This document shows, in pieces, positions 6,952 to 12,057 of a stretch of DNA of 64,000 bases; positions within the stretch are counted from its first letter, which is position 1, and every line of letters starts with the position of its first letter. This DNA is from Escherichia coli. Its GTDB lineage: Bacteria; Pseudomonadota; Gammaproteobacteria; Enterobacterales; Enterobacteriaceae. The notes below the pieces were generated by a model, which ran no database searches, had not been told where the DNA came from, and worked only from the letters and a program-made list of their open reading frames with translations. Where the stretch lies: the NCBI GenBank assembly GCA_029351405.1, contig GCA_029351405.1_4841.1; one strand, given 5' to 3'. The translations under genes and the position numbers were made by a program.

Positions 6952-7458
6952 TTATAGAGTAACAAGTGATACGGTAAAAACCATCGTCCCGTCTGTTGCC
7001 ATTTTTCTTGAAACTGGTATGACGCGAGGCTGGCAGAATATCCATTCTTTCTCCATGGACGCCAAGTCCAGCATATCCATTTCTGATTCATCGCCTTTGT
7101 TCACAAATTTTTCTAGAGAACCATAGACATTAAGCCCCTCCGGGAGTCCGTTTCGATGTTTGTAACAAATGCGGGCAACAGCTTTGGTTCCGTACGATTT
7201 AGAAAATTGTTTGGCCACATGCTTCAGTTCACTGAAGCTAAGACAAGAATCCCATGTCTGGAACATGTCGCCTCGTTCAAACATCATCTCTAAACGCGCA
7301 ACGTCCTCTTTAGGCAGCCCGCGATAAAGTGTGGTCGTCTGTGGTTCGCGTAATTCTTGCACCAGATCACGGACGGCAGGGGAAACAGTACCGGGGCGCA
7401 TTATGTGGGACTTATCATGGACGAGGTAAAATAAATCTTGAATTTGTTGATCGGTCAT
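6952..7458 (-). CDS. hypothetical protein (168 aa)
   Basis: ORF trimmed to ATG 7458 (MTDQQIQ...), AGGAA RBS, flanked by two copies of the same hairpin. Confidence 0.5.
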   Translation of the reverse strand: MTDQQIQDLFYLVHDKSHIMRPGTVSPAVRDLVQELREPQTTTLYRGLPKEDVARLEMMFERGDMFQTWDSCLSFSELKHVAKQFSKSYGTKAVARICYKHRNGLPEGLNVYGSLEKFVNKGDESEMDMLDLASMEKEWIFCQPRVIPVSRKMATDGTMVFTVSLVTL

Positions 7459-7483
7459 GGTATAGTTCCTGCATTTCAAATAG

Positions 7484-7807: not shown

Positions 7808-7837
7808 ATAATAGGACATTCCTTAGAGGAAGTAAAC
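7808..7837 (-). promoter_or_regulatory. sigma70-like promoter (GTTTAC-18 nt-TATTAT)
   Basis: Follows the terminator after the ACP-like gene and precedes the 63-aa gene. Confidence 0.35.
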
Positions 7838-7852
7838 CCCTAAAAGTAAAAA

Positions 7853-7872
7853 TCCCCAACGTTTGTTGGGGA
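7853..7872 (-). terminator. intrinsic terminator after the ACP-like gene
   Basis: TCCCCAAC-GTTT-GTTGGGGA followed on the minus strand by TTTTT. Confidence 0.55.
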
Positions 7873-7878
7873 CTTCTG

Positions 7879-8202
7879 TTATTTGCGCAGGGCAACTACG
7901 AGTTCAGCGAGTTCACCCATGGTCGGGTCATCACCTTTACTGCCCAGCCAACCATCGTCGATTTCGACCTGAAACTCTTCTTCGAGGTCCATTACAATTT
8001 CGATAGCGTCCAGTTCATCACCGCCGAGGTCTTTCTTGGTACGGAGGCCAGCCAGCTTGTCCAGGGCGTCCTCGTTCTGAGATGCCACGTCGTCCAGCAA
8101 TTTGCGCTTGTCATCGTCACGCCACAGATCCAAGTTCAGATTGTCAGTGGCGTACTGAGCCAGATGACGCATGACTTCAACATATGTTGGTTTGCTGCTC
8201 AT
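7879..8202 (-). CDS. acyl carrier protein-like protein (conserved Ser replaced by Glu)
   Basis: 107 aa; KDLGGDELDAIEIVMDLEEEFQVEIDD aligns with the ACP helix II region ([28 protein letters not shown]) but reads DEL instead of DSL; GGGAGA RBS. Confidence 0.7.
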   Translation of the reverse strand: MSSKPTYVEVMRHLAQYATDNLNLDLWRDDDKRKLLDDVASQNEDALDKLAGLRTKKDLGGDELDAIEIVMDLEEEFQVEIDDGWLGSKGDDPTMGELAELVVALRK

Positions 8203-8221
8203 GCTACTTCTCCCAAAGAAT

Positions 8222-8237
8222 GGCGGGTTGCCCCGCC
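8222..8237 (-). terminator. hairpin GGCGGG-TTGC-CCCGCC
   Basis: Between the vWA gene end and the ACP-like gene start. Confidence 0.35.
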
Positions 8238-8244
8238 CGTTGGA

Positions 8245-10446
8245 TTAGATTTTGATTTCTTTCTCTGTCAGTTCGGCAGTGACCTTGTACTTCACCCCAT
8301 CCACTTCAACTTCCATGGTGGACTCTTCCAGGTCGAGGTCGGTGAACCAGCCATGACCAGCAACGATACCATACACCACTTTAGACAGCGTCTTGTTCAG
8401 GGCGCGGACTTCGGTGATGGCCGCCTTGGTAGCAGCGTCGATCCAGTTTTCGATCAGCTGTTTCTGTAGGGCTTCAGGCACGGCAGTGATCATAGGAGAC
8501 TTCACAAATGCTTCGTACTCTTTCAGAGCATTGGCGATGAACAAGTCACCAGCATTGAGTTTCTTGTTCTCGGCGATCTTCTTCTGTACTGCCGCGATGC
8601 TCGGTAGTGAAGATGCCCCGGCGATCTTAACGTTCAGCTCACGGCTCATGTAGACGTCCGTGGAGTCCTTCAGTTCGGTCTTCGGTGAGAAGCCGTAATC
8701 GCGGATGCCGTAGGAGGACAGGAACTCGGCCGCCTCAGCGCCGTACTGTACTGCCAGGCCTTTGGCGTTACCCTTACCAACCAGGGCGTCTCGATAGAAC
8801 TTCAGTACCTTCTGCTTGCCTTTCAGGGCTTCCAGGCGGACATTATCCGCAAAGAACTGAGCAGCACTGATGTTCTTGACCATGGCGCGGTTGACCAGCG
8901 GTACGCTTTCCAGGTTCAGGATGAACACTTCCGGACCACCAAACACGTGGACGCCCATTTCGATCAGCTTCTGTACAACTTCGATATCAGCCTTGAACGG
9001 CAGAGTCTTCACGTTAATGATACCGTCTTTGACGATGGTGTAGTTGCGCCACTGGAAAGTATCCAGTTCTTCAGGCAGGCCAAACTTCTTCTGTGCGAAT
9101 TCAGGCACAGCCACAGTACCGTGTTGAATTGTACGCACACTGATGTTCGGGCGCTCGGAGTTATAGACCAAATCGCTGATTGGCACAACACCCAGGTCGT
9201 TGGTAGGTTCGAACGTCGGGTTCCACTCTTCGTGTTCTGCCAGCTTGAGAGCCAGGGCTTTACGCTCTTCTTTGGACTGAGCATTCGCGATCTGTTCTGC
9301 CAGCTTGTCTTCGGTGTCGTCGGTTTTCTGCACAGTACCGCGCCCGATACTCTTATAGGAGAACATCGGATGCTTGGTAGCAACAGGCACACCAGCTTCA
9401 GCCAGGTACGTCAGCACATCAACGACGGTTGTCGCATCTTCAGCCGGAACCATGTCATAGTCAATACCGTCAACGCCGCGCAGCTGGTCATCAACAATCG
9501 CCTGAACCAGATCGTTCTTGATGTTGGAGTAGTCCTGCTTGGTGAAGCAGTTGCTGTACTGTTTGATGAAGCGAACGTCGCCCGTCTTCTTCAGCGCAGC
9601 CCAAACCAGATCTGCGTCCATAGTGTGTACGCCGTAGAACGCCAGCACGTATGCCGCCTGGATGTCCGTCAGGCTATCCATCTGGTCGATCATGTTAGGG
9701 TTTACAACCCACAGCTTGGTGACGCTCTCAGGGATGCTCACATAGCCGACCGGGTGAGAGTCATCGTCCTGTACCGCCAGCACTGTTGCCACACCGTTTT
9801 CGACGTAGATTGCATGGGTGTAGATGACTGGGACATCAACTTTCACCTTCGGCACTGATGACTTCAGCACGTTTTCCAGTTCGTTCTGGTATTCGGTCTG
9901 ACCTTCGGCAAACACGTGAGTAGCACCGGAGCGTTCGGCCATCTGCGCCAGCAGTTCGCGGTTACAGTACCAGCCGTATTCGATAAATGTAATGTTATCG
10001 AAAGCAAATGGCAGGGTCTCAGCAACCAGTAAGATTTCGTTGGTACGCCAGCAGTTGTCATAACCATCGGTCATGAATGCCAGGTTGTTGACGTAGCCAG
10101 GTTTCTTCAGGTCACGCGCAGTATCCATCGCCAGTTTCAATGGCTCAACGAAACCAGTACAGCCGGATGGTTGCAGGAAACGGTCGATCAGTTTGTTCAG
10201 CTCGCTCAGGTCAGATGCGACACCGATCTGACGCCCGGCAAATACCGTTCCGAAATCACCGCGAGATGAAAAGTAAAGGATGCTCACAGTATCTTCGGGT
10301 TTCACCAGGGAAGGTAGGTTCTCCTTCAGATGCTTACGGACTTCTGGAAGTGAACGATACATGGAACCGGAGATATCCACAACGATTACATGGTTAGACG
10401 GCGCGACGGTCGCAACCGCATTCTTAAATGTTAATGATTCAATCAT
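8245..10446 (-). CDS. von Willebrand factor type A (vWA) domain protein
   Basis: ORF 8245-10584 trimmed to ATG 10446 (MIESLTF...); N-terminal MIDAS motif VVDISGSM ... MTDGYD; about 500-aa uncharacterised C-terminal region. Confidence 0.7.
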   Translation of the reverse strand: MIESLTFKNAVATVAPSNHVIVVDISGSMYRSLPEVRKHLKENLPSLVKPEDTVSILYFSSRGDFGTVFAGRQIGVASDLSELNKLIDRFLQPSGCTGFVEPLKLAMDTARDLKKPGYVNNLAFMTDGYDNCWRTNEILLVAETLPFAFDNITFIEYGWYCNRELLAQMAERSGATHVFAEGQTEYQNELENVLKSSVPKVKVDVPVIYTHAIYVENGVATVLAVQDDDSHPVGYVSIPESVTKLWVVNPNMIDQMDSLTDIQAAYVLAFYGVHTMDADLVWAALKKTGDVRFIKQYSNCFTKQDYSNIKNDLVQAIVDDQLRGVDGIDYDMVPAEDATTVVDVLTYLAEAGVPVATKHPMFSYKSIGRGTVQKTDDTEDKLAEQIANAQSKEERKALALKLAEHEEWNPTFEPTNDLGVVPISDLVYNSERPNISVRTIQHGTVAVPEFAQKKFGLPEELDTFQWRNYTIVKDGIINVKTLPFKADIEVVQKLIEMGVHVFGGPEVFILNLESVPLVNRAMVKNISAAQFFADNVRLEALKGKQKVLKFYRDALVGKGNAKGLAVQYGAEAAEFLSSYGIRDYGFSPKTELKDSTDVYMSRELNVKIAGASSLPSIAAVQKKIAENKKLNAGDLFIANALKEYEAFVKSPMITAVPEALQKQLIENWIDAATKAAITEVRALNKTLSKVVYGIVAGHGWFTDLDLEESTMEVEVDGVKYKVTAELTEKEIKI

Positions 10447-10615
10447 CGTTTTGACCTTTTTGGGCTTTGGAGTGTTTGGAGTTCGCGTCGGCGTTCTCCA
10501 GCATAGTTTCAATGAAATCCCGGTTGTTTTCCATTTGGGCGACCAGAACATCACTGGGGCGGAATGATTTGTCAAGACAATCAAGTCCGGCGCGTTTTAA
10601 TTTGTTGTCGGTCAT
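10439..10615 (-). CDS. small hypothetical protein
   Basis: 58 codons from ATG 10615 (listed ORF begins at a TTG); weak RBS. Confidence 0.25.
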   Translation of the reverse strand: MTDNKLKRAGLDCLDKSFRPSDVLVAQMENNRDFIETMLENADANSKHSKAQKGQNDD

Positions 10616-10660: not shown

Positions 10661-10691
10661 ATTATATTACGACAGGCGGTATTGATGTCAA
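10661..10691 (-). promoter_or_regulatory. sigma70-like promoter (TTGACA-17 nt-TAATAT)
   Basis: Minus-strand TTGACATCAATACCGCCTGTCGTAATATAAT in the AT-rich spacer upstream of the vWA operon. Confidence 0.4.
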
Positions 10692-10765: not shown

Positions 10766-11638
10766 TTATTTAAAGGAGTCTACAATGGATTTGAAAATAT
10801 AATCTTTGGAGCGCTGTTGTACCGGGAGTTCTCCATACGGAACCATGCAAGGGTGTTGTTTGGTCTGAGGGTCTTTGACTGGGCCATACACCCAACCCTC
10901 AGACTCCTTCTCCGCCATCCATCTCTCATGCGATTCGCTGGGCTTACGATCACCAGTGAGGTGGAAGATAACACCTTTGCAAGCGCTCTCACGTTGCCAG
11001 GCCGGAGATTGTTCCCAAGGCAGTTGAGAGTCGTCACCAACAGACTTACAGTATGCGCGGTTGGCTTCATGACAAATCTTGGCGATGCGCAGAACCAATG
11101 GCGAATAAGTGAGATCGAGTTTGGAGTTGGCGCGCAGGAAATCACTAACAGTCTTACGAGATTTGGCGTTATGAGATTCAACAACAAGTTCCATGTCATC
11201 CGGCCCACAAACGAAAGACGCCAAGAAGCGCTCACCATTTTCCGCTCTGAACGTCACGTCCTGAATCATCACATTGAAGCCGAGGTGATAGGCCGGATAG
11301 AGGGCGCTACGTTCAACAGCGTATTGATCGATCCGGATCTCTGCCGTTTCCGTGGCTTTGGCCAACAGATCTTGTTCAACAAGCGCCCGGTACGTCTCGA
11401 GCTGCCACAGCTGGTCGAAGGTATTATTGTAGGAAATCTCTTTGCCCAGGGCTTCATCGAAGTTGGCAGGGTCTATGGATGTGCTGGGCTTGGTGCCGTG
11501 AACGACGAAGCCGTTATCCATCTTGAAATGACAAGTGATAGCCCGGTGACCGCCGACTTCGCGGTCTTCGTAAATCACCTCAGCGATATGTGACTTCAGG
11601 ACTTCAGGAGTGAGTTTTATGCCAGTACGAGTTGTCAT
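10766..11638 (-). CDS. hypothetical two-domain protein (C-terminal RyR-like region suspected)
   Basis: 290 aa; the C-terminal stretch HERWMAEKESEGWVYGPVKDPQTKQHPCMVPYGELP resembles phage RyR-domain proteins; not verifiable without HMM search. Confidence 0.5.
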   Translation of the reverse strand: MTTRTGIKLTPEVLKSHIAEVIYEDREVGGHRAITCHFKMDNGFVVHGTKPSTSIDPANFDEALGKEISYNNTFDQLWQLETYRALVEQDLLAKATETAEIRIDQYAVERSALYPAYHLGFNVMIQDVTFRAENGERFLASFVCGPDDMELVVESHNAKSRKTVSDFLRANSKLDLTYSPLVLRIAKICHEANRAYCKSVGDDSQLPWEQSPAWQRESACKGVIFHLTGDRKPSESHERWMAEKESEGWVYGPVKDPQTKQHPCMVPYGELPVQQRSKDYIFKSIVDSFK

Positions 11639-11646
11639 GTGTTATC

Positions 11647-12021
11647 CTATGATAGTTGTTTACAGACCTCCACTACTTTACGACACATATCGATATTGAA
11701 CAACCCAATATGACAATCGCGCTTCTTGATCCCCAGCTTATGCGCCAGCCAACTGTAAGCGTCGCTCCTGCTCAACTCTCCGCTTTTCCACAGTGGGTCA
11801 AACGATCTATGGGCTTCCTGCTTAGCAGCACGGAGAGCGGCATTCGCCATCCTTCCCAAAGGTTGTCTGCCGTCGCCATGGGCATGGCAACCGACACGGG
11901 CATCACATGGGGTACATACCCAGAACTTCAGATTGCGGAGGTCAGGACGATGAGGGTAGAGAACATCACCACCGACGAATTCGGCTGGGAGGCCACAGTA
12001 ATCACATATAACAGGTTCCAT
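11647..12021 (-). CDS. zinc-ribbon protein
   Basis: ORF trimmed to ATG 12021; CDYCG ... CTPCD cysteine pairs. Confidence 0.45.
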   Translation of the reverse strand: MEPVICDYCGLPAEFVGGDVLYPHRPDLRNLKFWVCTPCDARVGCHAHGDGRQPLGRMANAALRAAKQEAHRSFDPLWKSGELSRSDAYSWLAHKLGIKKRDCHIGLFNIDMCRKVVEVCKQLS

Positions 12022-12040
12022 ATTCTTTGTCCAAAAGAAA

Positions 12041-12057
12041 CCCCGCACATGGCGGGG
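12041..12057 (-). terminator. hairpin CCCCGC-ACATG-GCGGGG plus T-tract
   Basis: Downstream of the 123-aa gene. Confidence 0.45.

Follow-up and report, generated by a model that had tools for sequence, protein, structure and literature searches.

What does a protein with the fold of an acyl carrier protein (ACP) do when the serine that should bear the prosthetic group is missing and a glutamate stands in its place? The question is raised by a small gene in a stretch of 64,000 nucleotides (hereafter the window) from an Escherichia coli assembly. The window is Ackermannviridae phage DNA (Aglimvirinae, Agtrevirus-like), and the region is 94.6-95.5% identical to Salmonella phage vB_CECAV_050 and the Escherichia phages PC3, PH4 and AV101. 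An initial annotation, made from the letters of the sequence, had placed an open reading frame at 7879..8202; the frame is real, its coordinates are exact, and it lies on the minus strand, within the replication and host-interaction region of the phage genome. Many GenBank and RefSeq records already name the gene 'acyl carrier protein', and its product of 107 residues (MSSKPTYVEVMRHLAQYATDNLNLDLWRDDDKRKLLDDVASQNEDALDKLAGLRTKKDLGGDELDAIEIVMDLEEEFQVEIDDGWLGSKGDDPTMGELAELVVALRK) matches the PHROGs family of that name, phrog_4154, from end to end (E 6.8e-57, residues 1-107, 108 profile positions); PHROGs classes this family as an auxiliary metabolic or host-takeover gene. The gene family and its name are thus known, and it is likewise known that apo-ACP is toxic and that organellar complexes use ACP folds devoid of a prosthetic group. 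Our literature search found no paper on phage ACPs lacking the serine or on S36E or S36D variants of ACP, and the papers found note neither the missing serine, nor its acidic replacement, nor the linkage to a VWA protein, nor the recurrence in viruses described below.

An ACP fold with a carboxylate at the attachment site

The initial annotation had called the product an ACP homologue and had proposed a profile search and a structure prediction as checks. Both came out in its favor. The Pfam PP-binding model PF00550 is matched above its curated threshold (24.8 bits against a gathering cut-off of 20.8), albeit over residues 58-101 only; a phmmer search of all PDB sequences retrieves 99 ACP chains with a best E value of 1.6e-5; and an AlphaFold2 model built from 27 homologues is reasonably confident (pLDDT 79.7, pTM 0.71) and presents the four-helix bundle of the ACP fold. 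The phmmer alignment to helix II of Bacillus subtilis ACP runs without a gap through phage residues '...KDLGGDELDAIEIVMDLEEEFQVEIDDG' and sets the phage motif GGDELD against GADSLD, so that Glu63 (codon GAA, 8014..8016, minus strand) takes the place of Ser36, the phosphopantetheine-attachment site of true ACPs. The exchange of Ser for Glu in the DSL motif had thus been read correctly. In the model, Glu63 is placed in a short turn (residues 61-63) preceding helix II.

How far does the resemblance to a working ACP extend? Residues 62-83 (7954..8019, minus strand), which comprise helix II and the adjoining acidic stretch, form the partner-recognition surface of ACPs in an extended-family alignment with E. 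coli AcpP. Here D62, L64, D65, I67, E68, M71, E74, E76, I81 and D83 are the counterparts of AcpP D35, L37, D38, V40, E41, M44, E47, E49, I54 and D56, and D35, L37, D38, E41, M44, E47, E49, I54 and D56 are identical in the two proteins. These ten contact positions are 85-100% conserved across 34 family members whose overall identity falls to about 30%, which substantiates the earlier statement that the acidic recognition helix is kept. According to phmmer, the helix is at least as close to B. subtilis ACP as to enterobacterial AcpP and bears no host-specific signature. With a pI of 4.24 and 27 acidic against 13 basic residues, the protein is as acidic as AcpP. It differs from AcpP by the Glu or Asp in place of the phosphopantetheinylated Ser and by the absence of a fatty acid synthase (FAS) context, and also by some 25 extra residues, forming an N-terminal helix or an insertion in loop I, and by a loop between helices III and IV that is six residues longer. 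The N-terminal helix is itself conserved (Y7, V10, A18, N21 and L22 in the 34-member alignment), and so is a family-specific segment in the region of helices III and IV (residues 85-96, 7915..7950, minus strand), whose W85-x-G87...D91-D92-P93-T94 loop is invariant in an alignment of 27 sequences and at least 85% conserved among the 34. Against TIGR00517, the NCBI equivalog model of AcpP, the protein scores less than half of the cut-off (33.7 against 70.45 bits) in a match that spans helix II only, and it stays far under the cut-off of every other ACP equivalog model.

A word-indexed homology search yielded 39 homologues, and an exhaustive profile search added further distant full-length relatives. 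The 34-member alignment takes in MAM_092 of Serratia phage phiMAM1 and, from Erwinia phage phiEa2809, an ORF that lacks an annotation. Of the 34 members, 28 have Glu at position 63, six have Asp and none has Ser. The Kuttervirus proteins carry Asp; the codons used across loci are GAA, GAG, GAC and GAT, none of which lies one step from a Ser codon. Against close relatives, the dN/dS of the gene is 0.05-0.10, 29 columns are invariant across the 27 sequences of the first alignment, and the gene is present in at least 276 phage genomes from several genera. Judged by these substitution patterns, the gene is under strong purifying selection. Since no member has Ser and dN/dS is so low, neither a sequencing error nor decay accounts for the missing serine. 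Where the initial annotation had seen a plain loss of Ser, the exclusive use of Glu and Asp indicates, at the level of sequence, selection for a carboxylate. The phage product is established as a selected non-carrier protein of the ACP fold, with a canonical docking helix and a required carboxylate.

Operon anatomy and the VWA partner

All genes of the region are on the minus strand, and the ACP-like gene is the last cistron of a conserved operon that consists of a 58-aa ORF, a VWA gene, a hairpin, the ACP-like gene and a terminator. A candidate sigma-70-like promoter (TTGACA, 16 nt, TAATAT; 10/12 matches) lies at 10664..10691, picked out by a consensus scan, which is not functional evidence. 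The first gene, the 58-aa ORF (10439..10615), matches phrog_11447 (6e-45), beyond which Pfam and PHROG scans indicate no function; it overlaps the start of the VWA gene, as does a comparable small gene in phage Det7 and in the metagenomic loci L004, L005 and L009. The upstream partner of the ACP-like gene (8245..10446) encodes a 733-aa protein with a VWA domain (PF00092; phrog_2426). Between its stop and the ribosome-binding site of the ACP-like gene, a GC-rich hairpin (GGCGGG-GCAA-CCCGCC, 8222..8237) is followed by a T-rich tail; it recurs at the same site in 8/8 loci with stems that differ yet stay complementary, and is possibly a partial terminator or an element that stabilizes the mRNA. 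The ribosome-binding site itself (GGGAGAAG, 8207..8214) stands 4 nt ahead of the ATG and has purine-rich equivalents at the same place in seven other loci. Directly 3' of the ACP-like stop, a strong hairpin (TCCCCAAC-AAAC-GTTGGGGA at 7853-7872, then TTTTTAC; 7843..7872 in all) is probably an intrinsic terminator that ends the operon. The 66-nt region holding this hairpin and a second one downstream has a predicted folding energy of -26.9 kcal/mol. A hairpin occupies this position in 6/8 loci, with a clear T-run in the window and in L002, L004 and L005, and a TTTAC(T/C)T motif follows the gene in 8/8 loci, overlapping a promoter-like site (TTTACT, 17 nt, TATTAT; 7808..7836) at the start of the next transcription unit. 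The ACP-like gene had been credited with its own ribosome-binding site and terminator. In this window both are present; a separate promoter for the gene was not found in a scan of the window, and autonomy thus gives way to the position of last cistron.

The ACP-like gene begins about 40-45 nt 3' of the VWA gene in the window, in Det7 (gp44/gp45) and in phiEa2809 (there as the unannotated ORF), and likewise in the metagenomic loci L002, L004, L005, L006 and L009, whose ACP-like proteins are 32-44% identical to that of the window. The same spacing is seen in 19/19 full-length family loci from IMG/VR, whereas in phiMAM1 three small genes separate the pair, which still lies within 0.9 kb. Among cultured phages, 270 records of the VWA protein (at least 60% identity) compare with 271-276 records of the ACP-like protein. 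All five MIDAS residues (DxSxS, T, D) are invariant across 31 VWA homologues down to 34% identity. The VWA family is the wider of the two: it comprises 504 phage records, among them those of the T4-like Slopekvirus and Pseudotevenvirus, and no ACP-like gene lies nearby in these Straboviridae, in Shewanella phage Thanatos-1 or in another distant contig. In the Straboviridae, an unrelated gene of about 210 aa is found 3' of the VWA gene. Co-occurrence is thus complete in the core Ackermannviridae, whereas elsewhere VWA genes occur without the ACP-like gene, and ACP-like genes without the serine occur without VWA.

In the window, the ACP-like ORF is in frame with the VWA gene, whose stop is separated from it by 14 sense codons; this is a coincidence, because the spacing differs in other loci. 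A read-through fusion of the two proteins was considered and rejected, given the out-of-frame spacing of 41-45 nt in Det7, L002, L004, L005 and L006. We also rejected a modification of Glu63 by a nearby 'RNA polymerase ADP-ribosylase', whose gene is not consistently adjacent and whose PHROG match is partial. When PADLOC was applied to the products of the ACP-like and VWA genes, to the 175-aa 'ADP-ribosylase' and to the RyR protein, it matched none of them. Literature on the Ackermannviridae VWA protein, as far as we found any, consists of genome annotations and one table of virion proteomics. In that table, for Kuttervirus Sajous1, the VWA protein and a 'putative ACP' were each retrieved once (PMC10892097), which argues against either being a real virion component.

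Serine-less ACP-like proteins elsewhere

Is the carboxylate a peculiarity of one phage family? Profile matches include two small phage-like proteins (P0052 of locus L003 and P0055 of L007) with the motif GGDELD or GADELD and no VWA neighbor. A pattern scan of IMG/VR that demanded an acidic residue, and whose count leaves out L045 and L049, revealed at least six more viral lineages with 'DELD' ACP-like proteins of 77-104 aa and no VWA gene within 4 kb; one such protein (L050) is 60% identical to E. coli AcpP and has Glu at the position of Ser36. The scan was repeated without bias, using a degenerate DNA pattern that left the attachment codon free. Its first 120 viral matches carry S in 106 cases, E in 10, D in three and A in one, so that roughly one in eight viral ACP-like genes of this sample lacks the serine, and 13 of these 14 are acidic, even though no Ser codon can become a Glu or Asp codon by fewer than two nucleotide changes. 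Several of the viral proteins lacking Ser are nearer to Ser-bearing AcpP (52-60% identity) than to any other protein lacking it, which argues for independent origins and convergence on Glu or Asp. Sequence comparison thus indicates that the change from Ser to Glu or Asp recurs independently across viral ACP-like genes.

The neighborhoods of these loci have little in common. An all-against-all BLAST of the loci outside the Ackermannviridae yielded no common neighbor family beyond pairwise matches, the only families present in more than two loci being the ACP-like genes themselves and an artefact of antisense ORFs; Pfam and PHROG scans of the neighbors in L003, L007 and L014 were uninformative. 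On two contigs, a Ser-less and a Ser-bearing ACP lie side by side, and a Vibrio phage encodes a version with Asn in place of Ser that is fused to a further domain. Ordinary ACPs of phages, such as BAJUN_00790 of Brevundimonas phage Bajun, keep the DSL serine, as do 106/120 matches of the census. They share the superfamily and a PHROG neighborhood (phrog_5934, phrog_4154) with the Ackermannviridae family, which never has the DSL serine. Outside viruses, D[ED]LD proteins of the ACP type are encoded chromosomally in Planctomycetota, Verrucomicrobiota, Acidobacteriota, Nostoc and other bacteria; many have N-termini that resemble signal peptides or lipoboxes, and some are arranged in tandem.

Proposed mimicry of host ACP and its alternatives

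How might an ACP-fold protein that cannot be charged serve a phage? The explanation we favor, tentatively and at somewhat less than even odds, is that it mimics ACP and docks non-productively on the ACP clients of the host. With Glu, or the Asp of sister genera, at the site that would otherwise take up 4'-phosphopantetheine, the protein is a very acidic non-carrier of the ACP fold. We envision that its helix II, in early or mid infection, would dock onto those host ACP-binding sites that need no prosthetic arm. PlsB, MukB and AcpS are candidate targets. Docking would be unproductive and would compete with host AcpP. The carboxylate may supply the negative charge that holo-ACP has in its Ser-O-phosphate, or, alternatively, it may stabilize the start of helix II. 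In the Ackermannviridae, the MIDAS-containing VWA protein from the same operon may act jointly. We infer the binding to host clients, the competitive effect and the role of the carboxylate from what the protein keeps and what it lacks. In particular, the combination expected of a decoy, a binding surface kept while the activity is lost, is found here.

Precedent comes from apo-ACP. Helix II is a generic surface through which many partners recognize ACP (PMC3340395), apo-ACP inhibits growth via glycerol-3-phosphate acyltransferase (PMC3896788), and MukB binds apo- and holo-AcpP, which stimulate its ATPase equally (PMC8602292). Apo-ACP thus exemplifies, for the clients PlsB and MukB, how an ACP surface still binds partners when no usable prosthetic group is attached, a feature that the phage protein would share. 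Apo-ACP is, however, a state of the host's own ACP, whereas the phage protein has the unmodifiable state genetically fixed, with a carboxylate at the site. Not every client is a candidate target, since SpoT does not bind apo-ACP (PMC3896788).

The strongest argument for mimicry is evolutionary: a partner private to the phage would be free to change together with the protein, whereas a host partner shaped for real ACP would be expected to hold helix II canonical, and it is the partner-contact residues that stay canonical while the rest diverges. Independent captures with Ser-to-Glu exchange in unrelated viruses, lacking both VWA and any shared neighbor, point in the same direction, as does the inhibition of PlsB and the binding of MukB by apo-ACP. 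We also count in its favor the location in the replication and host-interaction region and the single retrieval in the virion proteomics of a relative. Against mimicry speaks the tight linkage to a VWA protein whose MIDAS is intact, an arrangement that a stand-alone decoy leaves unexplained, as well as the lack of a host-specific signature in helix II. Moreover, the N-terminal helix, W85 and the DDPT loop point to an additional, non-canonical interface. Finally, the exported-looking chromosomal proteins cannot be cytoplasmic decoys, and the ACP fold with Glu or Asp may therefore have another, general role, for example in metal binding. If true, mimicry would add a novel type of host-takeover protein to those known from phages, one directed at a hub protein in bacterial lipid metabolism, and could single out ACP-docking sites as drug targets.

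Alternatively, the protein may serve the co-transcribed VWA protein exclusively, as its ligand or as one of its subunits, a possibility that we consider real but doubtful. Glu63 or the equivalent Asp, exposed at the point from which a prosthetic arm would project, would then complete the metal coordination of the MIDAS, helix II would pack onto the VWA domain, and the complex would be the functional unit. MIDAS domains are known to accept such ligands: integrins bind a Glu or Asp of their ligand, and the UBL domains of Rsa4 and Ytm1 present a Glu to the MIDAS of Mdn1/Rea1. We know of no ACP fold described as a MIDAS ligand. As in those pairs, a VWA neighbor has the DxSxS/T/D MIDAS and the ACP-like protein offers an exposed acidic residue, the contact being putative here. 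The operon with the VWA protein, which the initial annotation did not include, supports this reading of Glu63 as a metal ligand, and so do the close and widespread adjacency, the matching counts in cultured phages and the five invariant MIDAS residues. Restriction of position 63 to Glu and Asp is what would be expected of a metal ligand. The structure models are compatible with such a contact, in that the invariantly acidic residue is predicted to be exposed and the predicted VWA domain is similar to MIDAS domains that take small domains as ligands, the MDN1-MIDAS/UBL type among them.

A VWA ligand would explain the operon and the rule of Glu or Asp only, but not the cases without VWA, in which many viruses and bacteria have Glu/Asp ACP-like genes and no VWA protein. 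Conversely, the VWA homologues of Straboviridae, Thanatos-1 and other distant phages do without an ACP-like gene nearby. Adjacency alone is weak evidence, since gene order is conserved region-wide in the phage family, and the two genes have a hairpin with a T-tract between them. A private partner, furthermore, would not obviously keep a canonical ACP helix II. Should Glu63 be a MIDAS ligand, it would offer a starting point for understanding a large VWA protein present in more than 500 sequenced phages. Mimicry and VWA binding could also be combined, with the protein acting as an adaptor. From a wider perspective, it is conceivable, although we would not expect it, that these proteins, captured ACPs turned 'dead' repeatedly by phages, make up a convergent class of host-takeover or adaptor proteins that either jam the host ACP machinery (PlsB/Lpx lipid synthesis, MukBEF chromosome organization) by imitating the charged site of holo-ACP or, in the Ackermannviridae, plug the MIDAS of the VWA protein to form a two-component effector.

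An unlikely alternative is a generic module of the ACP fold, that is, an acidic structural, chaperone-like or divalent-cation-binding subunit unrelated to the recognition of ACP clients. Subunits of this kind exist in the mitoribosome (mL50), in Trypanosoma brucei (mt-SAF32) and among the ACP-like subunits of ciliate complex IV and ATP synthase. Those are eukaryotic organellar proteins of low similarity that have lost the canonical helix II, whereas the phage protein keeps the motif. A generic module would leave its full canonical set of partner contacts unexplained, its genomic context points to no candidate complex, and the virion proteomics speaks against a structural role in the virion. 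The convergent, selected exchange of Ser for Glu or Asp, which apparently exported bacterial proteins show as well, suggests an unrecognized use of the ACP fold by non-carriers.

That the protein is a true carrier after all, with the modification on a different residue or made by a non-canonical transferase, is hardly credible. The idea could draw on the database label in GenBank, RefSeq and PHROGs, on the PF00550 match above cut-off and on the conserved T94, but the attachment Ser is absent in all 34 family members, TIGR00517 fails, and T94 is the ordinary N-cap Thr of helix IV in ACPs; in one close relative, the 20 kb to each side contain no gene annotated as a PPTase, an acyltransferase or a FAS/PKS component. 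Because an acyl group could not be carried, the label 'acyl carrier protein' appears to be functionally wrong, which affects hundreds of Ackermannviridae genomes in which the gene is classed as auxiliary metabolic, including those of phages used or proposed for therapy or biocontrol against Salmonella, E. coli O157, Klebsiella and Dickeya. A functionless, decaying relic of a captured acpP, suggested by nothing but the loss of a catalytically essential residue, is practically untenable, as the selection data effectively refute it: dN/dS is low, the 29 columns are invariant, the gene is conserved across the genera that carry it, and the replacement is limited to Glu or Asp in the family, as it is to acidic residues in 13 of the 14 viral genes without Ser.

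Putative expression signals and frame relations of the VWA/ACP-like operon

How might the relative output of the two operon genes be set? The interval between the stop codon of the VWA gene and the ribosome-binding site of the ACP-like gene contains a GC-rich hairpin followed by a T-rich tail (window 8222-8237, minus strand). It is present in all eight loci compared (the window, L001, L002, L004, L005, L006, L009 and L015), and its stems vary in sequence with complementarity kept. One possibility is that the hairpin acts as a leaky terminator or attenuator and thereby sets the ratio of VWA to ACP-like protein; another is that it is an mRNA-stability element. On the 3' side of the ACP-like gene lies a TTTAC(T/C)T motif (window 7808-7836, minus strand), which is shared with seven other loci, is frequently extended to TTCAAT across this set, and overlaps a promoter-like site (TTTACT, 17 nt, TATTAT). 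It may represent a promoter element of Ackermannviridae phages.

Conceivably, the two genes could also be joined by translation. In the window, one frame runs on from the TAA stop of the VWA gene through 14 sense codons into the ACP-like ORF with no further stop (7882-10446, minus strand), so that read-through of the TAA would yield a fusion protein. Because the two genes are spaced out of frame in the other loci, the match in the window is probably a coincidence, and we rejected this candidate.

Conservation of the VWA gene and its surroundings

The 733-aa VWA protein, which bears a MIDAS motif (phrog_2426; window 8245-10446, minus strand), has conserved counterparts in over 500 phage genomes, among them those of the T4-like Slopekvirus and Pseudotevenvirus, at about 49% identity. 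No relative was recognisable for its C-terminal ~430 residues. In the Straboviridae loci L014 and L017, the place of the ACP-like gene after the VWA gene is taken by that of an unrelated, conserved protein of about 210 aa. A divergent version of the ACP-like protein lacking the attachment serine (FAMDELDYIEFIMELEDD) is encoded in Erwinia phage phiEa2809 (NC_027340.1) by an unannotated 99-aa ORF (L015:4810-5109), which starts 42 nt past the VWA gene, between NW77_086 and NW77_085; the RefSeq record has a 440-nt gap at this position.

Upstream of the operon, on the minus strand, are genes for a 290-aa protein with Phage_gp49_66 and RyR domains (window 10766-11638) and, directly upstream of that, a DUF3268 zinc-finger protein (11647-12048). 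Both are syntenic across Ackermannviridae; in locus L009, the two are separated from the operon by an inserted NAD-salvage pair, NAPRTase plus a phosphoribosyltransferase. In relatives, the name given to a 175-aa ORF (6952-7479, minus strand) is 'RNA polymerase ADP-ribosylase'. This label looks weakly founded, because the ORF matches the phrog_832 profile only at positions 1265-1425 of 1480 and has no Pfam match.

ACP-like proteins in other viruses and on bacterial chromosomes

A viral contig (L050/L127, IMGVR_UViG_3300033145_000332) encodes a 77-aa protein (ORF 3911-4144 of L050) with 60% identity to E. coli AcpP and Glu at the Ser36 position, which looks like an independent acpP capture turned Ser-less. 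The gene adjoins putative sugar-nucleotide enzyme genes (RfbA-like and RmlD-like by eye) and a ParB-methyltransferase-like gene. Two further viral contigs carry both a Ser-less (GADELD) ACP-like gene and a Ser-bearing ACP gene, adjacent in one (L040:3896-4469) and 1.2 kb apart in the other (L155:4491-6228). L155 and the locus L101 have in common a gene of 239-318 aa that overlaps the start of the Ser-less gene. In Vibrio phage 277E43-1, the ACP-like domain of the 177-aa VP277E431_P0098 (L018:2980-3513) is N-terminal, has Asn in the serine position (LGFDNLDFVELLMALEEEF) and is fused to a C-terminal region of about 90 residues.

Bacterial chromosomes encode proteins whose ACP-like domains, one or two per protein, have Glu or Asp in place of the attachment serine (GADELD; P0099, P0102, P0153, P0163, P0177, P0119, P0072, P0073, P0086 and P0125; loci L174-L200). 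Examples come from Pirellulaceae, Verrucomicrobia, Acidobacteriota, Nostoc, a Pseudomonas species, Bacteroidota and other bacteria, and many of the proteins have signal-peptide or lipobox-like N-termini. These proteins appear to form an exported, non-carrier class of the ACP fold, of which we found no published description.

The DDPT loop of the window protein recurs in a Ser-bearing ACP on phage-like contigs (L011-L013, with P0062), encoded immediately 3' of a DAHP-synthase/chorismate-mutase fusion gene. Also on the P0062 contig are genes for Prok_Ub, an E2-like protein, ThiF and several ParB_N proteins, which makes for an unusual cluster of metabolic and ubiquitin-like genes.
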